Assembly: GCA_037481835.1 (NCBI GenBank)
Contig: JBBFKW010000001.1
Span: 139,503 to 203,502, forward strand
DNA from: Desulfosoma sp.
Lineage (GTDB): Bacteria > Desulfobacterota > Syntrophobacteria > Syntrophobacterales > DSM-9756
DNA: 64,000 nucleotides
Direction of reading: 5' to 3'
How positions within the stretch are numbered: the stretch's first letter is position 1; each line of letters starts with the position of its first letter. Under the pieces are notes generated by a model. It did not search any database, was not told the origin of the DNA, and was given only the letters and a program-made list of their open reading frames with translations. This document shows, in pieces, positions 3,841 through 45,066 of the stretch. The translations under genes and the position numbers were made by a program.

Positions 3841-5694
3841 TTATTCGATGTAGATGGCCTTGAACTTACAGGTCTCGATACAAATCCCGCACCGGACGCA
3901 CACTTCCTCGTCAATCACATGGCATTCCTTGTTCACGCCGATGATGGCGTTTTCCGGGCAGCGGCGCCGGCACGCCCCGCACCCCGTGCACTTGTCCACA
4001 TCGATGACGTACTGGATGAGGGGCTTGCAGATCTTGGCGGGGCATTTCTTGTCGTAGACGTGGGCTTCGTATTCGTCGCGGAAGTAGCGCAGAGTGCTTA
4101 AGACCGGGTTGGGAGCGCTTTTCCCCAGGCCGCACAGGGCCGTCTCTTCAATGGCGTGGCAGAGCTCCTCCAGCTTGGTCAGGTGTTCCGGGGTGCCCCG
4201 GCCTTCGCACATGTCCACCACCAGCTCGTGCATGCGCTTGACACCGACCCGGCAGGGGATGCACTTGCCGCACGATTCTTCCACCAAGAAATTAAGGAAG
4301 TATCGGGCCACATCCACCATGCAGGTCACTTCGTCCATGACGATCATGCCGCCGGAGCCCATCATGGACCCGGCTTCCTTGAGCCTTTCGAAATCCACGG
4401 GAAGGTCGATGAGCCGCTCCGGCACGCACCCTCCCGACGGGCCGCCCGTCTGCACCGCCTTGAATTTTTTTCCGCCGGGAATGCCGCCGCCGATGTCTTC
4501 GATGATGGTGCGCAGCGGCGTCCCCATGGCCACTTCCACCAAGCCCGTATTGTTGATCTTGCCCACGAGGGAAAAGATCTTGGTCCCCTTGCTCCGTTCC
4601 GTGCCGATGGAAGCGTACCAGGCGCCGCCGTTGTTGATGATGAGCGGCACGTTGGCCCAGGTCTCCACGTTGTTCAAATTGCTCGGGCGGTTCCACAAGC
4701 CCTTTTCCACCGTGTGGATGTGCTTGCCGCGGGGCTCTCCGATCTTTCCTTCCAAAGACGCCATGAGCGCCGTGGACTCCCCGCAGATGAAAGCGCCGGC
4801 CCCTCGGTTGACGTGGATGTCCAAACTGAAGTCCGTCCCCAGGATGTTTTCCCCAAGAAGGCCGTATTCCTTGGCCTGGTGGATGGCCCAAATGGCGTTT
4901 TCCACCGCCATGGGGTATTCGAACCGGACGTAGATGTATCCTTCCCGGGCGCCGATGGCGTAGCCCCCGATGATCATCCCTTCCAGGACCTGGTGAGGGT
5001 TGCCTTCCAGAAGCGAACGGTCCATGTAGGCGCCGGGGTCGCCTTCGTCGGCGTTGCACATGACGTATTTGATGTCCCCGTGGGCCCGCCGGCACGACTC
5101 CCACTTGACGCCCGTGGGGAACCCGCCCCCGCCGCGCCCCCGAAGGCCCGAGATCTTCACTTCCTCGATGACCTGCTCGGGCGTCATGCCGGAGAGGACC
5201 TTGGCCAGAGCGGAATAGCCGCCCCGGGAGATGTAGTCCTCGATGTCCCGAACGTAGTTGCTGCCCGTATCTTTAAAGACGATGCGCTGCTGCTTGGCGA
5301 AAAACGGAATTTCGTACTCGTGGACGATGCGGTTTCCCGTGGTGGGATCCACATAGAGGAGATCCTCGAGGACCTCGCCGCCGAGAACGCTTCGATCCAC
5401 GATTTCCGCCACCCGATCCGGCTTCACCTTTTGGTAAAAAACCTCTTCGGGCTCAATGACCACAATGGGACCGGCGGCGCAAAACCCGTTGCACCCGGTG
5501 GGAACCACCATGTATTCGCGGGTAAGCCCCTTGTCCTCCAGCACCTTCACGAAGGCGTCCACCAGTTTATGGCTGCCCTGGGAATGACATCCCGTGCCGT
5601 TGCAGACGCGGATCCGCTTACGGATGTGTTTGCGCTTTTCGATGATCTGCTGCCGCAACGCGTCCAGATCTTGAATGCTCGTGAGCCGCTTCAT
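3841..5694 (-). CDS. nuoF: NuoF/HydB-type NADH- and FMN-binding flavoprotein with N-terminal [2Fe-2S] and C-terminal 2x[4Fe-4S] domains
   Basis: SGLRGRGGGGFPTG, CNADEGDPGAYMDR, GAGAFICGES, ESCGKCIPCR; N-terminal CNGTGC...TGCNGFC; C-terminal CTGCGAC...CP and CVRCGIC...CK. Confidence 0.95.
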   Translation of the reverse strand: MKRLTSIQDLDALRQQIIEKRKHIRKRIRVCNGTGCHSQGSHKLVDAFVKVLEDKGLTREYMVVPTGCNGFCAAGPIVVIEPEEVFYQKVKPDRVAEIVDRSVLGGEVLEDLLYVDPTTGNRIVHEYEIPFFAKQQRIVFKDTGSNYVRDIEDYISRGGYSALAKVLSGMTPEQVIEEVKISGLRGRGGGGFPTGVKWESCRRAHGDIKYVMCNADEGDPGAYMDRSLLEGNPHQVLEGMIIGGYAIGAREGYIYVRFEYPMAVENAIWAIHQAKEYGLLGENILGTDFSLDIHVNRGAGAFICGESTALMASLEGKIGEPRGKHIHTVEKGLWNRPSNLNNVETWANVPLIINNGGAWYASIGTERSKGTKIFSLVGKINNTGLVEVAMGTPLRTIIEDIGGGIPGGKKFKAVQTGGPSGGCVPERLIDLPVDFERLKEAGSMMGSGGMIVMDEVTCMVDVARYFLNFLVEESCGKCIPCRVGVKRMHELVVDMCEGRGTPEHLTKLEELCHAIEETALCGLGKSAPNPVLSTLRYFRDEYEAHVYDKKCPAKICKPLIQYVIDVDKCTGCGACRRRCPENAIIGVNKECHVIDEEVCVRCGICIETCKFKAIYIE

Positions 5695-5704
5695 GGTTTT
5701 CCAC

Positions 5705-6175
5705 CTACGCGCTCTTGGCTTTGATCTCTTTGACCAGCGCCGCCATCTTGTTCGGGGTCATCTCACTGTAGGTTTCCCCGCTGATCACCACCACGGGCGC
5801 CGAGGCGCACGCCCCCACACAGTTGACCGTCTCCAAGGTGAGCGCCAAGTCTTCCGTGGTCTGCCCCGGCTCCAAACCGAGATCTTGTCGCACGCGGTCC
5901 AGAAGCTTGGGCGCCCCTTTGACGTGGCAGGCCGTCCCCGTGCACACCTGCACCATGGTGCGCCCCCTCGGGGTGAGGCTGAAGACTTTGAAAAAATTGG
6001 CCACACTGTAGATCTGGTTGATGGGCATGCGCAGCCGCTCGGAAATCCGCAGCAGGCTCTCCTTCGGCAAGTAGTTGAACTTGTGATTCACGTCCAACAT
6101 GATCTGAAGGAGGGATTCCGGCTTGGCGCCCCATTGATCGATGACCGCATCCACGTCCTGAAGCATTTGTTCCAT
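5705..6175 (-). CDS. nuoE: NuoE/HydC-type [2Fe-2S] subunit
   Basis: VCTGTACHVKG...VNCVGACASAP; GGAGG RBS upstream of ATG at 6175. Confidence 0.93.
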   Translation of the reverse strand: MEQMLQDVDAVIDQWGAKPESLLQIMLDVNHKFNYLPKESLLRISERLRMPINQIYSVANFFKVFSLTPRGRTMVQVCTGTACHVKGAPKLLDRVRQDLGLEPGQTTEDLALTLETVNCVGACASAPVVVISGETYSEMTPNKMAALVKEIKAKSA

Positions 6176-35476: not shown

Positions 35477-35505
35477 TTGACAAAGCCGCCGAAACCCTTC
35501 ACTAT
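35477..35505 (+). promoter_or_regulatory. Candidate sigma70 promoter of the cysteine synthase fusion gene
   Basis: TTGACA-17 bp-CACTAT. Confidence 0.45.
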
Positions 35506-35593
35506 ACCGGCCGAATTCCTTATGGAAACTCATCCTTAAGGTCCGGAGCCGCCTCACGGCCCCCGAAAAACCCGCGTGGGAGATTGCGGCGTG

Positions 35594-37909
35594 ATGAAAA
35601 ACGTCTTCGACAATGTCCTGCAAGCCATCGGCAACACTCCCCTGGTGCGCATCAACCGCCTTAACCCCAATCCTCGAACGACCATCTACGCCAAGCTGGA
35701 ATGCAAGAACCCCGGCGGGTCCATCAAGGACCGCACGGCCCTGTTCATGATCGAGGCGGCCGAACGCAGCGGGGAGCTCACGCCGGACAAGACGATCATC
35801 GAGGCCACCAGCGGCAACACGGGCATCGGCCTCGCCGTGGTGGCCGCCGTCAAAGGGTACCGGCTCATCTTGGCCATGCCCGAAACCGCCAGCATGGAAC
35901 GCCAAAAGATCCTCAGGGCCCTCGGCGCCGAACTCCTCCTCACCCCCGGCGCCTTGGGCACGGACGGCGCCATCGAAGAAGTCTACCGGATGGTGAGGGA
36001 GCATCCGGACAAGTACTTCCTGGCGGATCAGTTCAACAATCCGGCCAATCCCGAGGCCCATTATCGAGGCACAGGCCCGGAAATCTACGAACAGACCGAA
36101 GGGCGCGTCAACGTGGTGGTGACCACCCTGGGCACAAGCGGCACGGCCATGGGCATCCTCCAAGCCATGAAGGAACGCAACCCCGCCATTGAAGTGGTGG
36201 CTGTGGAACCCTATCCGGGCCATAAGATCCAGGGCCTCAAAAATATGAAGGAATCTTACGTCCCCGGCATTTTTGACCGGCACAAGCTGGATCGCATCGT
36301 GCACGTCAAGGACGAAGACGCCTTCGAAATGGCCCGCCGGCTGGCTCGAGAAGAAGGGCTCTTTGTGGGCATGAGTTCCGGGGCGTGCATGGCGGCGGCC
36401 GTGGAAATCGCCAAGGAACGCCAAGACGGCCTGATCGTGGCCGTCCTTCCCGACGGCGGGGACCGCTACCTCAGCACCAACCTTTTCACCACCATGCTGG
36501 AGCCGGATTTTCGATTCTTCGACTTTCTGAGACGGGACAAAGTGGACTTCAAACCCGTCATGGAAGGGAAAATCCGCATTGCCGTCACCGGCCCTCCCTT
36601 GGACTCCTGCCTGTCGTTGGAAACCGCCCGGCGCCTTCTCCTCGCTGACATCCTCACCCGGTTCGTTCGATCCAAAGGGTTCCGCGTGGAAACGGCCGTC
36701 CTTCTTCCCGACCTGGACAGCCGATCCATCCAATGCGCCGCCGAAAGAGGCGCCCCTCTGGAACACTACGTGCACGAACGCTCGGCCGTCTTCGCCACGC
36801 AACTGGAAAAACTGGGCATGGCCGCCCAGCTTGTCATGACCAAAACGTCCGAACATACCGAAGCCGTCGTCTCCCTCGTCCGTTCGCTCCTCAAAAAAGG
36901 CGCCGCCTACGAAAAGCTCCGGTCGGTGTACTTCAGCGTGGCCCAGGCGGAGGATTACGGCCGTCTTTCCCGCATCGACCCCAAGAAAATCCGGCCCGGT
37001 TCTTCGGTGGACCTGAGCGCTTATGAAAAATTGAACCCGCGCGACTTTGCGCTGCTCAAACGAGCCACCCTGGCTGAACTCAAGCGCGGCGACTACGTCA
37101 AAACGGAATGGGGCAACGTGGTGCCCACCTGGCATATCGCGGCGGCGGCCATGGTCATGGACCGGTTCGGATTCCCTCTGGATCTGTGCGTCAGCGGCGT
37201 GGATTTTCTCTTCCCCCACCTGGAAAACGTCCACGCCATCGCGTGGGCCCTTGCGGGAAAGCCCTACGCGAACATCTGGCTTCTCACTGAAAGGATTCAA
37301 CAAGCGGACGACGGGGAGAGTCCCGAAACGGCGAAGGGGCTGACCCTGGAAGATCTCTACACCCAGGGCATGACGCCGGCAGAAATCCGGTTTTGGCTCA
37401 TCGCCTCGCACTACCGCAAACCCATGAGGGTTTCCGCCCAAAGCCTGCGCAGTGCCGCCCAAGGGCTCAAGAGGATCCGAGAATTCATCAGCCGGGTGCA
37501 TCATAGCCCCACCGAGGAACACATCGCCGACGGCGTGGAAGAAGAGGTTTTCTCCCTGGAACGGGGCTTCTTCGACGCCTTGGCCGATGATCTCAACACC
37601 CCCAAGGCCCTGGCGGCGCTTTTCGACTTCGTCCGAAAGATGAATCTTCGCATGGAACGCGGCCCCCTCACCCCCAGGGCCAAAGACGCGGTGCTCAAAG
37701 CCTTACAAAGCGTGGATCGGATTTTGGGCCTTTTCGAACGGGATCTTCGGGCTTTATCGCCCGACGAAAAGGCGCTCATCGACCAGCGGGAAGCGGCTCG
37801 AGCCGCCAAGGACTGGGCCCGAGCCGACGCCTTGCGAGACGAACTGAGGCGCCTGGGGATCGTCGTTCGAGACACCCCTCACGGCCCCCTATGGGAACGG
37901 GTTTCGTGA
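35594..37909 (+). CDS. Cysteine synthase (CysM-type, PLP) fused to a degenerate cysteinyl-tRNA synthetase-like region
   Basis: N-terminal IGNTPLV, NPGGSIKDR, EATSGNTG, GTSGT, PDGGDRYLS; C-terminal CysRS fold with DDLNTP and KDWARADALRD...GI..RD, but no HIGH or KMSKS. Confidence 0.93.
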   Translation: MKNVFDNVLQAIGNTPLVRINRLNPNPRTTIYAKLECKNPGGSIKDRTALFMIEAAERSGELTPDKTIIEATSGNTGIGLAVVAAVKGYRLILAMPETASMERQKILRALGAELLLTPGALGTDGAIEEVYRMVREHPDKYFLADQFNNPANPEAHYRGTGPEIYEQTEGRVNVVVTTLGTSGTAMGILQAMKERNPAIEVVAVEPYPGHKIQGLKNMKESYVPGIFDRHKLDRIVHVKDEDAFEMARRLAREEGLFVGMSSGACMAAAVEIAKERQDGLIVAVLPDGGDRYLSTNLFTTMLEPDFRFFDFLRRDKVDFKPVMEGKIRIAVTGPPLDSCLSLETARRLLLADILTRFVRSKGFRVETAVLLPDLDSRSIQCAAERGAPLEHYVHERSAVFATQLEKLGMAAQLVMTKTSEHTEAVVSLVRSLLKKGAAYEKLRSVYFSVAQAEDYGRLSRIDPKKIRPGSSVDLSAYEKLNPRDFALLKRATLAELKRGDYVKTEWGNVVPTWHIAAAAMVMDRFGFPLDLCVSGVDFLFPHLENVHAIAWALAGKPYANIWLLTERIQQADDGESPETAKGLTLEDLYTQGMTPAEIRFWLIASHYRKPMRVSAQSLRSAAQGLKRIREFISRVHHSPTEEHIADGVEEEVFSLERGFFDALADDLNTPKALAALFDFVRKMNLRMERGPLTPRAKDAVLKALQSVDRILGLFERDLRALSPDEKALIDQREAARAAKDWARADALRDELRRLGIVVRDTPHGPLWERVS

Positions 37910-37992: not shown

Positions 37993-39063
37993 TCATGGGG
38001 GCGATGGGACCGTGCCGTTGACACCCAGGATACTTCGCACCAGGCCCTCTTCGCCGGGTGCCAAAGGATAGGCGGCTTCTTCGCCGGCCGTGTTTCGAAA
38101 CACCACGCGATCCCGGTCCAAGCGAACCACAGCCGAAGCCGTCAACGGCACCTTGCCCAGTCCACCGGGAAGATCCACCACAACCTGAGGGATGGCCAGA
38201 CCGGAGATGCGGTTCCGCAAGGCGGCCACGAGGGAAGGCCCGGCCGTTATGGGGGTTCGAAAATGGGCCGTGCCGTGCATGAGGTCCATCTGGAGCAGGT
38301 AATAGGGGCGGATCCTGAGAGTGAGGAGTTCCATGAAGAGTTCAGCGAGCACCGTTGCGTCGTCGTTGACGGCCTTGAGGAGCACCGTTTGGCTTCCCAG
38401 GGGAATGCCGGCGTCGGCAAGGTTTCGGGCTGCCTCGCGGCTCTCGGGAGAAATTTCCTGAGGATGGTTGACGTGGATGTTCATGTAAAGGGGGTGGAAG
38501 GCTGCAAGGCGCCGTGCCAGATCGCGGCTTACCCGCGCCGGATCGGCAAAGGGCACTCGGGTGCCGATACGGATGAGGCGCACATGAGGGATTTCCCGCA
38601 CCTTGGCGCACACGCTCTCCAAAAAATCGAGAGAAAGCATCAAGGGGTCGCCCCCGGACAGGATGACGTCTCGAACCGCCGGGGTCTTGCGGATGTAGTC
38701 CAGAGCTTCGCGAACGAGCTCGTCCGTCAAGGGCACCGGGCGGGTCCAGCGTCGTTTGCGGGTGCAGAAACGGCAATGGACGGCACAGGCGTCCGTAAGG
38801 ATCCACAAGACGCGGTCGGGGTAGCGGTGGACCAGGTTGGGCACGGGGGATCGGCTTTCTTCCCCCAAGGGATCCCTCAGGCCCACGCGATCGTCGGCAT
38901 CCAGTTCCCTGGGATCGGGAACCACCTGGCGCCACAGGGGATCGCCCGGAGAGGCGATGAGGTCGGCAAAATGCCGGCTCAGCACAAAAGGGTACACTCC
39001 ATGGACCGCCTCCATGGGCTCGAAGGGCACTCGCCACCGAGCTGCAAACCGTTCCAAAGACAT
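37993..39063 (-). CDS. KamA-family radical SAM aminomutase
   Basis: DPLGE, HRYPDRVL, CAVHCRFCTRKR, SGGDPL, RIGTR, QTVLLK.VND, DLPGGLGK. Confidence 0.92.
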   Translation of the reverse strand: MSLERFAARWRVPFEPMEAVHGVYPFVLSRHFADLIASPGDPLWRQVVPDPRELDADDRVGLRDPLGEESRSPVPNLVHRYPDRVLWILTDACAVHCRFCTRKRRWTRPVPLTDELVREALDYIRKTPAVRDVILSGGDPLMLSLDFLESVCAKVREIPHVRLIRIGTRVPFADPARVSRDLARRLAAFHPLYMNIHVNHPQEISPESREAARNLADAGIPLGSQTVLLKAVNDDATVLAELFMELLTLRIRPYYLLQMDLMHGTAHFRTPITAGPSLVAALRNRISGLAIPQVVVDLPGGLGKVPLTASAVVRLDRDRVVFRNTAGEEAAYPLAPGEEGLVRSILGVNGTVPSPP

Positions 39064-39237
39064 CACGGCCTGTTCCTTCTCCCCTGGGTCGTTTCAAATA
39101 GGCCTTGGAAAGGTCGAGCCCCTCGCCTTTTAAGGCTCGACTTTCATCCATCTTCGTCACAACCCGGCGTGTGTCGTGATAAGGATCCGGGGGAGCGCAA
39201 CGACCCCCAACACCACTGATCCTTCCGAGGAGCCGCA

Positions 39238-40485
39238 GTGCTTCCGTCCTGGTTTCGCGTTTACGGTCGGCGCCATGTCTTGGGCCTCCTGGGCTTGGGC
39301 TTTTCCTCCGGCCTTCCCCTGGCGCTCACGGGAAGCACCCTCCAAGCCTGGATGAGCTCCGAAAAGGTGGATATCCGCCTCATCGGACTTTTTTCCCTCG
39401 TGGGACTTCCCTACACGCTCAAAGTGGCCTGGGCTCCCCTCATGGATCGCTTCCCAGCCCCCTGGCTGGGCAGGCGTCGGGGCTGGATCCTTACCACCCA
39501 GATCCTCCTGAGTGCAAGCTTCGTGATTCTGGGATCCCTCACACCTTCAGGCCACCTGCAGTTCATGGCCGTACTGGCTTTGCTCACCGCCTTCTTGAGT
39601 GCCAGCCAGGACATCGTCATCGACGCCTACCGTGCGGAAGTGCTTCCGGACGCAGATAAGGGAGCAGGTGCGGCCGTGAGCGTTGTCGGTTATCGCTTGG
39701 CCATGCTCACATCAGGGGCTATGGCCCTTATTCTCTCCGACCATGTGCCGTGGCGAGCCGTCTACACGGCCATGGGACTGATCATGGCGGCATGCGCCCT
39801 ATGGACGTTTGCTTGCCCCGAACCGACGGGCTTGGAGCCATCCCCGCCCCGCCCCAGGACCCTCCAGGAAGCCGTGTGGGCACCGTTTGTCGATTACTTT
39901 GCCCGGCCCGGAGCCGTGGCCATGCTGGCTTTCATCATGGTGTTCAAACTTAGTGATGCTTTGGCGGGAGCTCTGACCACGCCTTTCTTGCTGGATTTGG
40001 GGTTTACGCGAACGGATGTGGGCACGGTGAACAAAGCTTTCGGGCTGGGGAGCACCATTGCGGGCACTTTGGCAGGGGGCGCGATCGTCAATCGTCTTGG
40101 GATCGCCCGATCCCTGTGGGTTTCGGCCTTCCTCCAGGCTTTTTCCAACCTGGCCTTTGCGGGACTGGCCACGGCGGGCTGTCATTACCCTTTCATGGTC
40201 GGCGCGGTGGCCGTGGAAAATCTCTGCGGCGGCGTGGGGACGGCGGCCTTTCTGGCCTTTCTCATGAGCCTGTGCAACCGCCGCTACACCGCCACCCAAT
40301 ACGCGCTCCTTTCCAGCTTCATGGCCGTCTCGCGGGTTGTTGTCGGAGCTCCCACGGGATATTTGGCAGCGGCACTGGGTTGGCCGTGGTTCTACGTTGT
40401 AAGCGTTTTCGGGGCCGTTCCCGGCATCCTGCTTCTGCCCCGCTTCGCCCCTTGGCACCACACCACAGCCGGTCACAATGGGTAG
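39238..40485 (+). CDS. ampG: AmpG-family MFS muropeptide permease
   Basis: GFSSGLPL, LKVAWAP, GRRRGW, SASQDIVIDAYR, ATQYALLSS. Confidence 0.93.
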   Translation: MLPSWFRVYGRRHVLGLLGLGFSSGLPLALTGSTLQAWMSSEKVDIRLIGLFSLVGLPYTLKVAWAPLMDRFPAPWLGRRRGWILTTQILLSASFVILGSLTPSGHLQFMAVLALLTAFLSASQDIVIDAYRAEVLPDADKGAGAAVSVVGYRLAMLTSGAMALILSDHVPWRAVYTAMGLIMAACALWTFACPEPTGLEPSPPRPRTLQEAVWAPFVDYFARPGAVAMLAFIMVFKLSDALAGALTTPFLLDLGFTRTDVGTVNKAFGLGSTIAGTLAGGAIVNRLGIARSLWVSAFLQAFSNLAFAGLATAGCHYPFMVGAVAVENLCGGVGTAAFLAFLMSLCNRRYTATQYALLSSFMAVSRVVVGAPTGYLAAALGWPWFYVVSVFGAVPGILLLPRFAPWHHTTAGHNG

Positions 40486-40582
40486 GCACTGATCGGCCCC
40501 TGCGGGTTACACGTTGGAATGCGGAGGCCATGCTCCGGGTTTCGAACGGCAGGAAAATGGCAGGAACAAACCGATGCGTCGA

Positions 40583-41458
40583 TCACGGGAGAAGGCTTCG
40601 AAACTCGTCCAGGCTTCGGACCCGCAGCGCTTGCCTGTGCAGTTCCTTGAGGTGCCGCCGGGATTCCACCCCCATGATCCGCTCTTCCACATCCCTCGGA
40701 ACCAACGTGAACCGCTCCGACAAGGCCTCCAGGACCATCTCGCGGGCTTCCGCCAGCATGCCCTCTTGGAGACCATGCCGCAGCCCCTCGTCGTAGCCTT
40801 CTTTCTTGATGAGTTCGTAACCCGCAGACTCCATCATGATATCCCTCCTTCGGCTCAAAAGCCGCCGGGGCAGCTCCTTGGAAACCAGACCCGACAAAAG
40901 CGCCATGCCGGTGAGCAAATCAGCCTTCTCCCCGCGCTCCAGCCTCGCCTCGCTCAACACTCGCTCCGCCTCGTCAAAAACCTCCACCCCTCCCTTCATC
41001 AGCCCCACAAACGGCAAAAGGCACGGATCGCCCAAACCCATGACCTCCCGAGCGTCCAAAGCCCCCACCGAAATCACCCGAAACGCATACCGCAGCCCGC
41101 CGTCCTCAAAAACTTCCTCCACAGCCCCACTCGGCGTCAGCAACAACACGGCCGGAAGCACCGAAAGGCCCGTCTTCATCCGATACCGAGCATCATATTC
41201 CAAAAGCCGAAGCGCCACATCCGGCACCCACCGGCTCTGCACCTCCAAAAGCACCACAAAAGTGCGCCCGTCCGCCGTGCGCACCCGCACCGGAAAATCA
41301 CTCCGCCTCAACGAGGCCGTCTCCTGGGGCAACTCCAAAATCTCCGACTCCTCCACCCGAAGCCCCAGAAAATACTCCAGCGCCGCCTTCCGGCACCGGC
41401 TCAAAATCACCTTCACCGCCGCATCGTAACTTCCCATGAGGCCTTGCTCAATGCTCAT
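40583..41458 (-). CDS. Rpn/YhgA-like PD-(D/E)XK nuclease (putative transposase family), copy 3
   Basis: YD...K, RRSDF...LLEVQS, RLLEY, C-terminal EGYDEGLRHGLQEG; start 41458 (ATGA-coupled) or 41437. Confidence 0.8.
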   Translation of the reverse strand: MSIEQGLMGSYDAAVKVILSRCRKAALEYFLGLRVEESEILELPQETASLRRSDFPVRVRTADGRTFVVLLEVQSRWVPDVALRLLEYDARYRMKTGLSVLPAVLLLTPSGAVEEVFEDGGLRYAFRVISVGALDAREVMGLGDPCLLPFVGLMKGGVEVFDEAERVLSEARLERGEKADLLTGMALLSGLVSKELPRRLLSRRRDIMMESAGYELIKKEGYDEGLRHGLQEGMLAEAREMVLEALSERFTLVPRDVEERIMGVESRRHLKELHRQALRVRSLDEFRSLLP

Positions 41459-42318
41459 CCCAATAAGTCTCGAAATTCCTCCAGGCTTCGAACCCGCAGC
41501 GCTTGCCTGTGCAGTTCCTTGAGGTGCCGGCGGGATTCCACTTCCATGATCCGCTCTTCCACATCCCGCGGAACCAACGTGAACCGCTCCGACAAGGCCT
41601 CCAGCACCATCTCGCGGGCTTCCGCCAACATGCCATGCCGCAGCCCCTCGTCGTAGCCTTCTTTCTTGATGAGTTCGTAACCCGCAGACTCCATCATGAT
41701 ATCCCTCCTTCGGCTCAAAAGCCGCCGGGGCAGCTCCTTGGAAACCAGACCCGACAAAAGCGCCATGCCGGTGAGCAAATCAGCCTTCTCCCCGCGCTCC
41801 AGCCTCGCCTCGCTCAACACTCGCTCCGCCTCGTCAAAAACCTCCACCCCTCCCTTCATCAGCCCCACAAACGGCAAAAGGCACGGATCGCCCAAACCCA
41901 TGACCTCCCGAGCGTCCAAAGCCCCCACCGAAATCACCCGAAACGCATACCGCAGCCCGCCGTCCTCAAAAACTTCCTCCACAGCCCCACTCGGCGTCAG
42001 CAACAACACGGCCGGAAGCACCGAAAGGCCCGTCTTCATCCGATACCGAGCATCATATTCCAAAAGCCGAAGCGCCACATCCGGCACCCACCGGCTCTGC
42101 ACCTCCAAAAGCACCACAAAAGTGCGCCCGTCCGCCGTGCGCACCCGCACCGGAAAATCACTCCGCCTCAACGAGGCCGTCTCCTGGGGCAACTCCAAAA
42201 TCTCCGACTCCTCCACCCGAAGCCCCAGAAAATACTCCAGCGCCGCCTTCCGGCACCGGCTCAAAATCACCTTCACCGCCGCATCGTAGCTTCCCATGAG
42301 CCCTTGCTCGATTCTCAT
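41455..42318 (-). CDS. Rpn/YhgA-like PD-(D/E)XK nuclease, copy 2
   Basis: Same motifs; start 42318 (ATGA-coupled) or 42297. Confidence 0.8.
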   Translation of the reverse strand: MRIEQGLMGSYDAAVKVILSRCRKAALEYFLGLRVEESEILELPQETASLRRSDFPVRVRTADGRTFVVLLEVQSRWVPDVALRLLEYDARYRMKTGLSVLPAVLLLTPSGAVEEVFEDGGLRYAFRVISVGALDAREVMGLGDPCLLPFVGLMKGGVEVFDEAERVLSEARLERGEKADLLTGMALLSGLVSKELPRRLLSRRRDIMMESAGYELIKKEGYDEGLRHGMLAEAREMVLEALSERFTLVPRDVEERIMEVESRRHLKELHRQALRVRSLEEFRDLLG

Positions 42319-43157
42319 CCCAATAAGTCTCGAAATTCCTCCAGGCTTCGGACCCGCAGAGCATGCCTGAGAAGTTCCTTAAGGTGCCGGCGGGATTCCA
42401 CTTCCATGATCCGCTCTTCCACATCCCGCGGAACCAACGTGAACCGCTCCGACAAGGCCTCCAGCACCATCTCGCGGGCTTCCGCCAACATGCCATGCCG
42501 CAGCCCCTCGTCGTAGCCTTCTTTCTTGATGAGTTCGTAACCCGCAGACTCCATCATGATATCCCTCCTTCGGCTCAAAAGCCGCCGGGGCAGCTCCTTG
42601 GAAACCAGACCCGACAAAAGCGCCATGCCGGTGAGCAAATCAGCCTTCTCCCCGCGCTCCAGCCTCGCCTCGCTCAACACTCGCTCCGCCTCGTCAAAAA
42701 CCTCCACCCCTCCCTTCATCAGCCCCACAAACGGCAAAAGGCACGGATCGCCCAAACCCATGACCTCCCGAGCGTCCAAAGCCCCCACCGAAATCACCCG
42801 AAACGCATACCGCAGCCCGCCGTCCTCAAAAACTTCCTCCACAGCCCCACTCGGCGTCAGCAACAACACGGCCGGAAGCACCGAAAGGCCCGTCTTCATC
42901 CGATACCGAGCATCATATTCCAAAAGCCGAAGCGCCACATCCGGCACCCACCGGCTCTGCACCTCCAAAAGCACCACAAAAGTGCGCCCGTCCGCCGTGC
43001 GCACCCGCACCGGAAAATCACTCCGCCTCAACGAGGCCGTCTCCTGGGGCAACTCCAAAATCTCCGACTCCTCCACCCGAAGCCCCAGAAAATACTCCAG
43101 CGCCGCCTTCCGGCACCGGCTCAAAATCACCTTCACCGCCGCATCGTAGCTTGCCAT
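42315..43157 (-). CDS. Rpn/YhgA-like PD-(D/E)XK nuclease, copy 1
   Basis: Same motifs; GGAGA RBS before ATG 43157 (MASYDAAVK). Confidence 0.8.
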   Translation of the reverse strand: MASYDAAVKVILSRCRKAALEYFLGLRVEESEILELPQETASLRRSDFPVRVRTADGRTFVVLLEVQSRWVPDVALRLLEYDARYRMKTGLSVLPAVLLLTPSGAVEEVFEDGGLRYAFRVISVGALDAREVMGLGDPCLLPFVGLMKGGVEVFDEAERVLSEARLERGEKADLLTGMALLSGLVSKELPRRLLSRRRDIMMESAGYELIKKEGYDEGLRHGMLAEAREMVLEALSERFTLVPRDVEERIMEVESRRHLKELLRHALRVRSLEEFRDLLG

Positions 43158-43330
43158 GATATTCTCCGAAGTCCGCTCAATTTTATTTCTGTGTATCATA
43201 CCGACAGCGGGGAACAAATACGAAGAACGGCTGCGAGGATGTGTCAAGACTCTTGCCGCTTTAGGACCAGCTCCCGGCCGGGAAGCTGGAATCCCAAGGA
43301 GCCGGAGGGAGGCCCGCTTGGGCGAGTTCA

Positions 43331-43361
43331 GTTGGGGTTCGCTTCGCTCACCCCAACCTAC
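43331..43361 (-). repeat. GTAG-type REP element
   Basis: Exact reverse complement of 21263-21293 (31/31). Confidence 0.9.
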
Positions 43362-43418
43362 GAATTTACTGCAGGATTCCCAAAAGCGAGATGGTGGTTC
43401 AAGCCGGCTTGCGACCGT

Positions 43419-43862
43419 TTATAGGCTGAGGAGGGTGAGGCCGCTGGCGGGGTCTTTTTTCCGGGCGGCCGTGCTTCCCAGGATCTCCAGGAGGATCACT
43501 TCCCCCACCAGCCATACCGTGACGCCAGCCCGGGTGCAGCCCACGGAAGCGCCCCCTTCACGACCCAAAGCGCCGTGCATGTGGAGCACGGGATTTCCCT
43601 GCTCGTCGGGAAACACGGTGCCCACAGCCAGAATCTCTTGAATTCCCGTAAGGGTGTGGACCAACGGGATGATCTCCGTGCCGCGTCCCGCTTCAGGGCC
43701 GACGACAATGCGGCTGCCGTCGTCAACCCCACCTAAAAGGATGGCCATGGCCCGCGACACCCCCTTTTCCCGGGCAAAGTTTTCGATCACGTCCGGAATG
43801 CGCTCCCCTTCTTCCAGCCGCAACACAAACACGCGACCGATCCGCCCTTCATCGTAACGCAT
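43419..43862 (-). CDS. PPC/DUF296 domain protein
   Basis: RVFVLRLEEGE, EILAVGTV, LHMHGALGR, GEVILLE. Confidence 0.85.
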   Translation of the reverse strand: MRYDEGRIGRVFVLRLEEGERIPDVIENFAREKGVSRAMAILLGGVDDGSRIVVGPEAGRGTEIIPLVHTLTGIQEILAVGTVFPDEQGNPVLHMHGALGREGGASVGCTRAGVTVWLVGEVILLEILGSTAARKKDPASGLTLLSL

Positions 43863-43932
43863 CCTCACCTCCCTGTCGCTTTCCGCCCAGCTCAGTTTAA
43901 GAATTTTCCTCGTGGAACCCTATTCCGCGCCG

Positions 43933-45066
43933 TTAACACAGAAGATGTCGGTTGGCCAGGCGCACCCGCCGCAATCCGGCCCGCTGGGCCGCATCCAGGC
44001 ACGCTTCTGCCTCCTGCCGCGATGTGGTGGGAAAATCGTTCAGCACAAATTGCGGGGCAAAGCCCAATAGGGCATAGGGGATATCCGGATTGAGTTCCGC
44101 TATGAATCGCGCGATGCGCGACACTTCTTCTTCGCCCACATAGCCCGGCACAAGGAGCGTGCTGGCGATGAGCAATGGCGGATCGGGCCTCATGGAAAAA
44201 TATTGGGCCAGCTGCGCGAAGTTTTCCAGAACCTGGCGATTGTCCGTGCCGCATAGGGCCCGGTGGATATGCGGGTCCCAGGCCTTGAGATCCACCTTGA
44301 CACACCCGCCGGATTCCAAGGACAGCTGGACCATGGGGCGGAGCCAGCTGGGATGCATGCTCCCGTTGGTTTCCCAGCACACACGCAGCACGCCCCCCGA
44401 CCGGTTCTTCATCGCCTCCCGGGAAAAGCGCAGCGCAAAGGGCAACTGCGGCACGGGATCTCCGCCGAAAAAGCAAATGCAGGAAGTTCGATCCGTCACC
44501 GCGGGGAGCATCTCATCCACGGTCAGCCAGGGTTTTTCGTGCGCCGGCGTGCGCTTGAACGTCCAGTTCTGGCAATAGAGGCAGTTGAAATTGCACGCTT
44601 CGAAAAAGACCGCCAGGTTGTACCAACCCACTTCCGGGCCTTTGGTCATGCTGTATCTCGGATAGCCGACGCCCGTGCCGCCCGCGCACACCCAGTCGGC
44701 GACACAATTGGTGGGGATGGGATCGTGGTAGTAAGAGACCAGGGCGCGAAGCCGCCCGTCGAGACGCAAACTTTCCATATCCCCGGTGCGAATGCCGCAA
44801 TAGCCCGGTTCCCCGGCTTCCATGCGACACCGATGATGGCACAAGCTGCATTCCGCCCCGATCCGGGCCTTTGGGGCTTTCTCGGGCAAGAGAAAACGGG
44901 TCCGGGATTTTCGGTGCACCGCGTCCACCAAAGGTTCGGCACGGCCCCACTCATGGACCAGGCATCGAGCGCACACGCCGATTCCCGATCCTAGGCCGTC
45001 GATTTCGGCGCCGCAGACACCGCAGCGAAACCCTCGCCCTCTCCCGGTCAGCCAATGAAGCCCCAC
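43933..45066 (-). CDS. Radical SAM protein (PFL-activase/AmrS-like, Cys-rich N-terminus)
   Basis: CNFNCLYCQNW, FFGGDP, WETNG, VDLKA, STLLVPGY; N-terminal CxxC motifs. Confidence 0.88.
   Translation of the reverse strand: MGLHWLTGRGRGFRCGVCGAEIDGLGSGIGVCARCLVHEWGRAEPLVDAVHRKSRTRFLLPEKAPKARIGAECSLCHHRCRMEAGEPGYCGIRTGDMESLRLDGRLRALVSYYHDPIPTNCVADWVCAGGTGVGYPRYSMTKGPEVGWYNLAVFFEACNFNCLYCQNWTFKRTPAHEKPWLTVDEMLPAVTDRTSCICFFGGDPVPQLPFALRFSREAMKNRSGGVLRVCWETNGSMHPSWLRPMVQLSLESGGCVKVDLKAWDPHIHRALCGTDNRQVLENFAQLAQYFSMRPDPPLLIASTLLVPGYVGEEEVSRIARFIAELNPDIPYALLGFAPQFVLNDFPTTSRQEAEACLDAAQRAGLRRVRLANRHLLC

Follow-up and report, generated by a model that had tools for sequence, protein, structure and literature searches.

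The fused gene and its cysteine synthase domain

We analyzed a 64,000-nucleotide stretch of Desulfosoma sp. DNA, referred to here as the window. On its forward strand, the ORF listing contains a single open frame (35576..37909) that spans two modules; the order of the Pfam domains and the NCBIfam scores bore out the claim of the first-pass annotation that one ORF joins a cysteine synthase to a full-length CysRS-fold region. The start of the fusion gene is likely the ATG at 35594, because relatives begin with MKNV and a putative ribosome-binding site, GGGAGA (35578..35583, forward strand), lies 10 nt 5' of this ATG. The whole gene would then occupy 35594..37909 on the forward strand, that is, 771 codons and a stop codon (771 aa). 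Further upstream on the same strand is a promoter-like element (35477..35505), composed of TTGACA (35477-35482), a 17-nt spacer, and a weak -10 hexamer, CACTAT (35500-35505). Since the -10 is weak, this element was missed by a consensus scan; in an upstream alignment, TTTGACAA of the element was unchanged in 10/10 loci of relatives. We infer that the element acts as a promoter and would produce a leader of ~85 nt.

Judged from its sequence, the N-terminal module (residues 1-300, 35594..36493, forward strand) is an intact CysM-type PLP beta-replacement enzyme. Pfam PALP matched residues 9-287 with 246 bits, the NCBIfam cysKM model TIGR01136 scored 383.6 bits (above its cut-off of 344.15), and the cysM equivalog TIGR01138 scored 370.8 bits, just below its cut-off of 394.2. 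The PLP lysine K45 (35726-35728, within SIKDR) and the TSGNTG substrate loop (residues 72-77, 35807-35824), both on the forward strand, are invariant in 46/46 diverse fusions. K45 is also present in 116/117 members of the subfamily to which this protein belongs, termed the dead subfamily below, the remaining one having a gap at this position. Together with the TIGR01136 score, these residues upheld the earlier reading of an intact synthase from SIKDR and TSGNT. Foldseek placed the domain closest to E. coli CysM (2bhs, TMt 0.96). Alignment to CysM structures identified a CysM-type loop, QGLKNMKE (36230-36253, forward strand), that carries an invariant K216: residues 199-243 align without gaps to E. 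coli CysM (2bhs and 2v03) and Salmonella CysM (2jc3), with K216 opposite R210 of the E. coli enzyme, whereas the CysK-type entry 5xa2 aligns here only with a 3-residue gap. The fusion therefore shares with these CysM enzymes the PLP lysine, the TSGNTG loop and an extended loop that carries a basic residue and is absent from CysK, but it replaces R210 by K216 and adds a 470-residue C-terminal CysRS paralog. The loop also matches that of M. tuberculosis CysM (3dwg/3dki), an O-phosphoserine sulfhydrylase. Between genomes G000 and G003, the dN/dS of the synthase domain was 0.034.

Loss of catalytic motifs in the CysRS paralog

A short linker (residues 301-306, 36494..36511), in which EPDF is conserved in the family consensus and the AF2 pLDDT dips to ~70, leads into the catalytically disabled CysRS-paralog module (residues 307-771, 36512..37906); these and all further features of the module are on the forward strand. 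Pfam recognized tRNA-synt_1e at residues 319-621 (146 bits), DALR_2 at residues 659-715 (44.8 bits), and CysS_C at residues 720-762 (50.4 bits). The two latter matches confirmed the proposed helical bundle/DALR domain (residues 635-725, 37496..37768) and anticodon-binding domain (residues 726-771, 37769..37906). The well-conserved connective peptide (CP) domain was placed at residues 436-515 (36899..37138), using what we take to be the limits of the E. coli domain, carried over through the alignment to E. coli CysRS (1li5). The cysS model TIGR00435 scored 235.2 bits, below its cut-off of 340, and the best structural match of the module was chain B of E. coli CysRS in complex with tRNA-Cys (1u0b_B, TMt 0.80). 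Overall, the AF2 model of the fusion is confident (pLDDT 88.8).

Motif positions were set by a HMMER alignment to 1li5, taking C28, C209, H234 and E238 to be the Zn ligands of the E. coli enzyme, as the first-pass annotation did. T332 (36587-36589) lies opposite C28, and SLET (residues 341-344, 36614-36625) lies opposite HIGH (37-40), so that a lost ligand and a lost ATP motif together occupy 36587..36625. The cysteine/Zn pocket (37130..37231) has been remodeled: WHIAA (residues 513-517, 37130-37144) stands opposite WHIEC, with A517 in place of C209, and FPHLENV (residues 540-546) stands opposite FPHHENE, with H234 kept as H542, H235 replaced by L, and E238 replaced by V546. At the KMSKS position (266-270), the aligned string is GESPE, within an unconserved loop (residues 573-580, 37310..37333) whose AF2 pLDDT is below 50. 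The substitutions and losses named in the first-pass annotation were thus all recovered in the alignment, and the losses recur throughout the dead subfamily. In the 117 aligned proteins of the dead subfamily, C28 is never kept (T in 114, S in 2, A in 1), and neither is C209 (0/117) nor E238 (0/117); HIGH is replaced by [ST][LIV][QE][ED]-type strings, and KMSKS is absent as well. By contrast, H542 is kept in 117/117 and W513 in 111/117.

Because HIGH and KMSKS are missing, the module should be unable to bind ATP, and because three of four Zn ligands are missing, it should be unable to hold cysteine on zinc; as both steps would fail, the module is not expected to charge tRNA, and we predict that the CysRS paralog is catalytically dead for aminoacylation. 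The CysRS fold is full-length with every domain present, and one could imagine charging of tRNA-Cys persisting through some unorthodox mechanism. We give this idea hardly any credence, given that HIGH, KMSKS and three Zn ligands are gone in 117/117 members and that the TIGR00435 score is under its cut-off. Nor does the module resemble MshC, an active ATP-dependent ligase and CysRS paralog according to passages in PMC5389517 and PMC9437257: the ATP motifs are absent, and the MshC model TIGR03447 gave 107.2 bits against a cut-off of 485.1.

Constraint on the anticodon-binding domain and the spread of the family

Four residues of the anticodon-binding domain, R736 (37799-37801), W741 (37814-37816), D745 (37826-37828) and R748 (37835-37837), all on the forward strand, align with E. 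coli CysRS R427, W432, D436 and R439, respectively, which a passage in PMC13449415 describes as having been mutated to alter anticodon specificity. All four are kept in 117/117 dead-subfamily members. Among the 46 diverse fusions, which include all family states, 46/46 have the R, D and R and 38/46 the W (F in seven, Y in one), and within the 46-residue domain no columns other than R732, R736, D745 and R748 are invariant. As a counterpoint, the conserved Arg and Asp residues might also serve the fold.

The dN/dS of the pseudo-CysRS between G000 and G003 was 0.074, compared to 0.083 for canonical CysRS; this is purifying selection, and the neutral decay considered in the first-pass annotation was not seen. 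Values were lower still for the CP (0.034) and anticodon-binding (0.035) domains, which are the best-kept parts of the paralog. Of the columns invariant in canonical CysRS, 9/16 are kept in the anticodon-binding domain and 21/47 in CP, compared to 5/59 in Rossmann-1 and 5/43 in the SC-fold. When depth is matched, the module has nevertheless diverged faster than canonical CysRS (identity 0.535 vs. 0.727); mean pairwise identity was 0.71 vs. 0.81 for CP and 0.43 vs. 0.55 for the DALR domain. We also noted that the Rossmann and SC-fold regions, which hold the tRNA 3' end in real CysRS, are the most relaxed, which together with the disordered loop at the KMSKS position means that binding of the acceptor end may be impaired. 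The first-pass annotation had regarded the protein as a pseudo-synthetase selected for tRNA-Cys binding. Of this claim, the catalytic loss and the selection stand, and the anticodon contacts (117/117) are in its favor; tRNA-Cys binding itself is what these residues would predict.

Fusions are not confined to this genome. Full-length forms, from motif-intact to more degraded than the one here, were found in 160/401 sampled genomes of the phylum, and the fusion is present in 39/41 related genomes, with full-length orthologues in 36/41. It is absent from G021 and G030 and frameshifted in G029, suggesting that a genome with a cysE-cysK pair can do without it. A quick IQ-TREE tree indicated vertical inheritance through the order. 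The fusion is thus one state of a phylum-wide family, whose motif-intact forms the first-pass annotation missed. Family states comprise motif-intact, ATP-site-dead, and ATP- and Zn-site-dead forms, with the anticodon readers invariant, and the Pfam tRNA-synt_1e score descends through 390, 335, 216, 146, 88, 85 and 63 bits to no match. We considered whether the fusion is the sole CysRS where its motifs are intact and rejected this, as a canonical cysS is also present in 5/5 such genomes. Nonetheless, given the motif-intact fusions in other lineages, which may still charge tRNA, the family may have begun with genuine charging, and its dead form could be a relic that evolves slowly.

The gradient from motif-intact to degraded forms, the faster divergence of the module (identity 0.535 vs. 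0.727 in canonical CysRS), and the D. ferrophilus-type members, in which the DALR and CysS_C domains are no longer recognizable, are what would be expected if the paralog were kept solely for folding, solubility or oligomer assembly of the synthase, neither binding RNA nor regulating anything. Such a structural role predicts neither the invariant anticodon contacts of the dead subfamily nor the tightest constraint falling on the anticodon-binding and CP domains (dN/dS ~0.035), and even P0124 retains the R, D and R of the anticodon-binding domain, each of these columns being 46/46 in alignment A1, of which P0124 is a member. We therefore consider it unlikely.

A related-locus search of named genomes returned 80 loci, mostly of plain CysK and with ~16 full-length fusions. 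Over 14 named loci (48 flanking ORFs and four ORFs of the window; loci L121 and L134 were left out of the scan), no conserved gene neighbor was found, hence, as a further counterpoint, none that points to a partner. At some Desulfobacterales-type loci, tmk lies upstream and a weakly similar ORF (~320-333 aa) lies downstream, an arrangement that we judged to be local synteny. Our literature searches found no description of a CysK/CysM-CysRS fusion; in PMC2922099, the CysK/CysM and CysRS terms stand in passages unrelated to each other.

The cysteine route and a possible link to tRNA-Cys

A separate canonical cysS (TIGR00435, 583 bits) was found on contig 18, as the first-pass annotation had advised looking for, so the fusion is not the only cysS of the genome. 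The module is 28% identical to this canonical CysRS, and a separate canonical cysS was likewise present in 10/10 distant fusion-bearing genomes tested. Charging of tRNA-Cys in this organism is thus probably performed by the canonical enzyme and not by the fusion. As to synthesis, the fused domain is the sole cysKM match over the cut-off in a profile search of the genome. A search of the genome for CysE gave no match over the cut-off (best match 46 bits vs. 210.65), and 14/15 genomes of families f1 and f2 yielded no CysE-like gene and no stand-alone CysK. The substrate of the fused synthase might accordingly be O-acetylserine, O-phosphoserine or serine. The sole-synthase status and the undetected CysE were not noticed in the first-pass annotation, whose observation was confirmed in every detail, with all coordinates correct.

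A PLP beta-replacement enzyme joined to a tRNA-Cys reader, in a genome where the search found no CysE, is also what one would expect if cysteine were formed on tRNA. Here the module would present Ser- or phosphoseryl-tRNA-Cys, and the PLP enzyme would convert it to Cys-tRNA-Cys, as SelA and SepCysS act on their own substrates. The SepRS/SepCysS version of this proposal, raised in the first-pass annotation, found no support: SepRS (TIGR00470) was not found in this 99.4% complete genome, the best match being 19.8 bits against a cut-off of 380.65. What would be left is a third, undescribed route, requiring neither SepRS nor SepCysS, in which the module holds serylated or phosphoserylated tRNA-Cys while CysM converts it with sulfide; we see only a slim chance of this. 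Its carrier in this genome could be selC*, a 92-nt tRNA-Sec-like tRNA-Cys(GCA) encoded on contig C21 with selB* downstream, whose long arm might make it a substrate of SerRS. A passage of PMC5389517 describes a tRNA-Sec-like tRNA-Cys with selB* of this kind and quotes the SerRS identity rule that a long arm is needed. Normal tRNA-Cys lacks the long arm, and the synthase domain resembles an ordinary CysM acting on free substrates. Moreover, selC* was found by BLAST in only 12/41 relatives (plus one spurious 24-nt match), compared to 39/41 for the fusion; we therefore rejected selC* as an obligate partner of the fusion and regard tRNA-dependent formation in general as very unlikely. Across the 41 relatives, the matches listed for the Rfam tRNA-Sec model contributed nothing new but ordinary tRNAs; the 20 ambiguous tRNA-Sec matches among those listed were tRNA-Ser(UGA) in 18 cases and Leu and Trp in one case each.

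A dead CysRS that keeps its tRNA-reading residues suggests instead that cysteine synthesis is tied to tRNA-Cys. Our preferred reading, held tentatively as close to but short of an even call, is that a non-catalytic tRNA-Cys-binding module couples the two. Because the tRNA-reading surfaces of CysRS and the four GCA-contact residues are kept, the module would dock tRNA-Cys through its anticodon-binding domain, with the CP domain facing the acceptor stem, and docking would link how fast cysteine is made to the condition of the tRNA-Cys pool. In the form that we deem most likely, uncharged tRNA-Cys would accumulate when cysteine is short, bind to the module, and stimulate the fused synthase. Such control might be needed in this genome and its closest relatives, which appear to lack the feedback-inhibited serine acetyltransferase (CysE) that is the usual control point. 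The tRNA binding, the effect of tRNA on synthase activity, and the direction of this effect are all predictions from the sequence, and direct allosteric activation of a bacterial biosynthetic enzyme by uncharged tRNA-Cys is part of what we infer to be the best explanation.

Retained tRNA-reading residues would also suit a docking or channeling scaffold that holds tRNA-Cys, or contacts the housekeeping CysRS, near the site of synthesis, so that nascent cysteine bypasses the free pool. Free cysteine is reactive, which makes channeling plausible, and motif-intact relatives could couple synthesis and charging in one polypeptide. However, to judge from the 1u0b-like fold, tRNA lying on the surfaces of the dead module would be unavailable to canonical CysRS, and we give such a scaffold a low probability. 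A different ligand is less probable again: PTWHIA and FLFPHLEN, the strings at the former active site, show strong conservation in their new form, suggesting a pocket in use, and the module might bind a small molecule there or another RNA, such as an anticodon-loop mimic in an mRNA (compare ThrRS and its own leader). The anticodon-contact residues are, however, exactly those of tRNA-Cys recognition. We also rejected the idea that an anticodon-loop mimic in the leader mediates autoregulation, since a YUGCAR loop is not conserved there (zero matches in the window; chance matches in 2/9 relatives) and an Rfam search of the window returned zero matches.

With canonical CysRS (1li5, 1u0b), the module shares the order of Rossmann, CP, SC-fold, helical/DALR and anticodon-binding domains as well as the four anticodon-contact residues; unlike it, the module has neither HIGH nor KMSKS, retains only H234 of the Zn ligands, and is fused to a synthase. 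Two regulatory systems offer parallels to the proposed coupling. HisZ is a HisRS paralog that serves as a separate regulatory subunit of the ATP-phosphoribosyltransferase HisG; it has no anticodon-binding domain and senses the amino acid. As in the fusion, a dead aaRS paralog is attached to the pathway of its own amino acid, but in the fusion the attachment is covalent, the anticodon-binding domain is kept, and the amino-acid (Zn) site is lost. The mechanism proposed here has its closest analogue in GCN2, where a degenerate HisRS-like domain is joined to an effector enzyme and presumably works by binding uncharged tRNA. In that eukaryotic protein the effector is a kinase and many tRNAs are bound, whereas the fusion has the biosynthetic enzyme itself as effector and a reader that seems specific for the GCA anticodon. 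Like regulatory pseudo-aaRS, the module has lost its catalytic signatures under purifying selection and is covalently linked to an effector (in 160/401 genomes); a ligand-driven change of effector activity, as in HisZ or GCN2, may complete the parallel.

Another CysRS-family copy, found in these bacterial groups in addition to the housekeeping enzyme, is CysRS* of Desulfobacterales, which passages in PMC5389517 and PMC9437257 describe as active, without an anticodon-binding domain, and adjoining selC*/selB*. The module differs in being inactive, in keeping its anticodon-binding domain, and in being fused to CysM, while selC*-selB* lies on another contig, C21.

Fusions of this type occur across a phylum of sulfate reducers and syntrophs, where database names call them either 'cysteine synthase' or 'cysteine--tRNA ligase'; the latter is wrong for the dead subfamily and inflates cysS counts. 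The family gradient with its invariant anticodon readers provides a natural series for testing the coupling. If tRNA-Cys is bound, the fusion would exemplify a metabolic enzyme in bacteria that uses a recycled synthetase body to read the tRNA of its own product.

Domains and motifs of the fusion protein

The open frame at 35576-37909 (+ strand) in the ORF listing of the window likely starts at the ATG at 35594, since orthologues open with MKNV and a GGGAGA lies 10 nt 5' of this codon. The product, P0001 (771 residues), matched the Pfam families PALP (residues 9-287), tRNA-synt_1e (319-621), DALR_2 (659-715) and CysS_C (720-762). With NCBIfam models, the N-terminal part scored 383.6 against a cysKM cut-off of 344, and the C-terminal part scored 235 against a cysS cut-off of 340, with the cysS model matched end to end.

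The first-pass annotation had described the C-terminal CysRS-fold part (here residues 307-771) as catalytically dead. Aligning it with E. coli CysRS (1li5) in HMMER bore out each of the motif losses, and the nucleotide coordinates given for them were exact. At positions that we take to be Zn ligands in the E. coli enzyme (the alignment itself is the HMMER result), C28 is replaced by T332 and C209 by A517 within WHIAA, while FPHHENE has become FPHLENV, with E238 lost and H234 kept. HIGH is replaced by SLET, and GESPE stands where KMSKS is expected. These losses are shared by the subfamily. In an alignment of 117 proteins of at least 700 aa (P0001 and 116 others) with the genome's own canonical CysRS, the C28 position of the 117 was T in 114, S in two and A in one; none retained C209 or E238; the HIGH position held [ST][LIV][QE][ED]-like strings; and the KMSKS region was unconserved. 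The remodelled strings PTWHIA and FLFPHLEN were strongly conserved across the same 117 proteins, and the PLP lysine was kept in 116, the remaining one having a gap, with TSGNTG behaving likewise. That a module so altered retains some residual charging activity appears highly improbable.

AlphaFold2, run on a 46-row alignment, gave a mean pLDDT of 88.8 and a pTM of 0.73, and the module was disordered only at residues 471-480 and 573-580, the latter being the KMSKS-equivalent loop. The best Foldseek match was 1u0b_B, E. coli CysRS with tRNA-Cys bound (TMt 0.80, 479 columns). The synthase domain was closest to the CysM entries 2bhs, 2jc3 and 2v03 (TMt 0.96). Its family-specific loop, QGLKNMKE, could be aligned gaplessly with the CysM of E. 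coli and Salmonella, K216 facing R210, and also matched the CysM of M. tuberculosis, described in its entry as an O-phosphoserine sulfhydrylase; with a CysK-type entry, a 3-residue gap was required at this loop. The fused synthase is CysM-type.

A TTGACA box 5' of the gene is a conserved element of its own, with TTTGACAA unchanged in 10/10 upstream alignments. The upstream alignment of relatives revealed no conserved anticodon-loop mimic in the leader, and an Rfam search of the window returned no match. The genes on both sides lie on the opposite strand, and the flanking genes (UbiD family, PanE, a KamA-like radical-SAM enzyme and an MFS transporter) are unrelated. The KamA-like protein (37993-39066, − strand; Radical_SAM and LAM_C, the lysine-2,3-aminomutase C-terminal domain) is encoded convergently with the fusion gene. 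KamA-like enzymes include EpmB, the partner of the LysRS paralog EpmA; here the proximity is probably a coincidence because the neighbourhood is unconserved in other lineages. Further downstream, GC skew is strongly negative at 40001-44000 (-0.23, -0.25) relative to the rest of the window. The string NSSRLRTRSACLCSSLRCRRDS, common to the translations of two + strand ORFs (40116..40796 and 40514..41656), points to a putative direct repeat of at least ~70 nt flanking a 291-aa ORF (40583..41458, − strand).

Distribution and descent of the fusion

The host genome (3.63 Mb, 38 contigs, 99.4% complete) also carries the separate canonical cysS that the first-pass annotation had proposed looking for (contig 18, 583 bits). 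The fused synthase is its sole cysKM-family match over the cut-off. No CysE over the cut-off was found in the genome, the best match (46 bits) covering a hexapeptide region only. SepRS, likewise sought in this 99.4% complete genome, was not found (best match 19.8 bits), and tRNA-dependent cysteine formation, which the earlier annotation had entertained, seems very unlikely.

A word-indexed search with residues 300-771 showed that PALP and tRNA-synt_1e were both present in 116 of the best 120 matches (47-88% identity); the other four, of 491-525 aa and without PALP, came from contigs no longer than 11 kb. The matches listed carry source names such as Desulfosoma, Desulfacinum, Desulforhabdus, Syntrophobacter, Thermodesulforhabdus and one Acidobacteriota MAG. 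Within the same order, 39/41 genomes carry the fusion. It is full-length in 36/41 and split across contig ends in two (G026, G038); it was not found in two others (G021, G030). One further copy (G029:C40:6320-8634) is read in two adjacent frames covering residues 1-500 and 501-771, and one full-length copy (G017:C84:6848-9172) has a reported in-frame TAA; either sequencing error or rare disruption accounts for these.

Canonical CysRS, ~30% identical to the fused module, was seen in 39/41 genomes (E <= 1e-30). The genomes fall into families f1, f2 and f3. A CysE-like gene (~157-170 bits, a full-length match below the 210-bit cut-off) occurs in 24/26 f3 genomes and in G004, and a stand-alone cysK adjoins it in at least 10 of these. 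Neither gene was found in the other 14 of the 15 f1 and f2 genomes, the window's genome included, and so far as this sequence survey shows, those 14 have no recognisable cysteine synthase besides the fusion. The two fusion-free genomes, G021 and G030, are f3 members, and f3 is the family that has the classical cysE-cysK pair. We also noted a third CysRS-like ORF (~424-476 aa, 23-27% identical to fusion residues ~300-715) listed in 15 f3 genomes (e.g. G039:C1:40686-41936, G024:C125:7777-9015 and G022:C162:21458-22696) and absent from the window's genome. Its match ends at residue ~715, and the anticodon-binding domain is thus missing; it could be CysRS*-like (a known active CysRS copy) or MshC-like.

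When the phylum was sampled evenly, 160 of 401 genomes and 98 of 254 genera had a full-length match at E <= 1e-110. A second collection contributed named carriers, among them Desulforapulum autotrophicum, Desulfatibacillum, Ca. Desulfobulbus rimicarensis, Desulfocapsa, Desulfopila, Caldimicrobium, Desulfocurvus and Desulfovibrionaceae MAGs. At four Desulfobacterales-type loci, an ORF of 320-333 aa lies 3' of the fusion gene on the same strand (L117:2644-3642, L118:8275-9264, L125:8282-9250, L128:7749-8708). These ORFs had no Pfam match at 1e-5 and are weakly alike across the four loci (24-34% identity, E 1e-4 to 1e-24). Thymidylate kinase is encoded upstream at L116, L118 and L125, the last two of which are among the four. 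One candidate identity for the ORF is a diverged holB-like gene in a tmk operon that has taken up the fusion.

An exhaustive representative search, Pfam and motif tables together revealed a gradient of states. Motif-intact fusions, which keep C28, H-x-G-x, WH[IL]EC, FPHH/N-ENE and KMS[KR], were found in genomes G200 (P0122), G212, G079, G144, G072 and G143 and in a Nanoarchaeota MAG (P0126). Others have lost the ATP motifs and kept the Zn ligands (e.g. G057); the window's subfamily has lost both the ATP and Zn sites; and the more degraded P0124 (Desulfovibrio ferrophilus), P0127 and P0128 have no DALR or CysS_C match. Pfam tRNA-synt_1e scores drop in step: 390, 335, 216, 146 (P0001), 88, 85, 63 and none. 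Canonical cysS was separately present in 10/10 distant fusion-bearing genomes tested, five of them with motif-intact fusions, in which the fused domain exceeds the cut-off at 440-457 bits; throughout this set, the fused CysRS thus comes in addition to a canonical one. P0126 (768 aa; tRNA-synt_1e 390 bits) has every catalytic motif intact and is possibly a truly bifunctional enzyme.

In a quick IQ-TREE phylogeny, a single clade held 22 of 23 canonical CysRS (SH-aLRT 99). The order's 13 dead domains grouped in another (100), and a larger clade joined these to the intermediate from G184 (99). Within the dead-domain clade, the branching order matches the one seen for the same genomes' canonical enzymes, a pattern that fits vertical descent since the order's ancestor with a single catalytic loss there. 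The Nanoarchaeota fusion is probably independent because it groups with stand-alone enzymes. The starred branches force at least two origins; the deeper order of the tree is unsafe, with long branches and composition bias flagged.

Constraint on the CysRS module

We compared mean pairwise identity at matched depth, using the same 21 genomes for the fusion and canonical CysRS and domain limits that we take from E. coli, mapped via the HMMER alignment to 1li5. The synthase domain averaged 0.81, and the whole CysRS module 0.535 versus 0.727 for the canonical enzyme. By region, fusion versus canonical values were 0.49 versus 0.76 (Rossmann-1), 0.71 versus 0.81 (connective peptide, CP), 0.64 versus 0.85 (Rossmann-2), 0.44 versus 0.81 (SC-fold), 0.43 versus 0.55 (helical) and 0.55 versus 0.62 (anticodon-binding). 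The canonical-invariant columns that the dead family both conserves and leaves unaltered numbered 5/59, 21/47, 9/31, 5/43, 6/23 and 9/16 in the same regions, respectively. For the closest pair (G000, the window's genome, versus G003; dS 0.45-0.84 in three whole-module comparisons), Nei-Gojobori dN/dS was 0.034 for the synthase domain, 0.074 for the dead module and 0.083 for canonical CysRS; within the module, it was 0.16 for Rossmann-1, 0.034 for CP and 0.035 for the anticodon-binding domain. More distant pairs, which are near saturation, gave 0.12-0.31 for the module, higher than the 0.06-0.16 of canonical CysRS. Selection acts on the dead module, with the constraint located on its tRNA-facing parts. 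We consider it unlikely that the module is a structural relic, and equally so that it serves docking or channelling; binding of another RNA or ligand is less likely again.

The accessible text of a 2026 study (PMC13449415) describes E. coli CysRS re-engineered for a CUA anticodon, guided by 1U0B, with four anticodon-binding-domain residues targeted: Arg427, which hydrogen-bonds to G34 O6, Trp432, Asp436 and Arg439. The P0001 equivalents in the HMMER alignment to 1li5 (R736, W741, D745 and R748) are all kept in 117/117 dead-subfamily proteins. In a set of 46 fusions that spans every state, the two R and the D are unchanged in 46/46, and W is found in 38 (F in seven, Y in one). Only R732, R736, D745 and R748 are invariant across these 46 in the 46-residue domain; the chance of three of four invariant columns falling on the four contact positions is ~0.001, a descriptive figure as the rows are related. 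The invariance of the reader residues across all states suggests that the common feature of the whole family is a tRNA-Cys anticodon reader, not catalysis.

Candidate partners and proposed role

ARAGORN found two tRNA-Cys(GCA) genes in the genome, a normal one of 75 nt (C10:138289-138363) and a 92-nt gene that has U73 and a long variable arm. The latter is a tRNA-Sec-like selC* outside the window (contig C21, 7235-7326, − strand), with a SelB-like ORF, selB* (654 aa; 4149-6113, − strand), downstream; a normal selC lies at C2:169298-169396. This arrangement matches the selC* and selB* system of Mukai et al. (PMC5389517), an article whose accessible text does not contain the term "cysteine synthase". 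A module serving selC* would need to co-occur with it. However, selC* is present in 12/41 relatives (f1 8/9, G000 counted; f2 0/6; f3 4/26; a spurious G030 match excluded) versus 39/41 for the fusion. There is no co-occurrence, and we rejected this lead.

Our literature searches, which took in few subscription journals and no supplements, found no paper on a CysK/CysM-CysRS fusion. The accessible text of a review of prokaryotic cysteine-encoding systems (PMC8762117) mentions neither cysteine synthase, CysK, CysM nor a paralog, and the aaRS paralog table in that of a 2022 review (PMC9437257) has CysRS* and MshC as its only CysRS entries. The window contributes the ATP- and Zn-site-dead state of the fusion, and the fusion as apparent sole cysteine synthase in genomes without CysE; added here are the relatives with intact motifs, whose genomes each hold a separate cysS, and the negative test of the selC* link. 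Our favoured reading, held tentatively, is that the dead module is non-catalytic and would bind tRNA-Cys. We favour it because, of all features, the tRNA readers alone persist in every state of the family, and because the lineage has neither a cysteine-binding Zn site nor the CysE control point. Binding of tRNA-Cys would then couple synthase activity to the tRNA-Cys pool.
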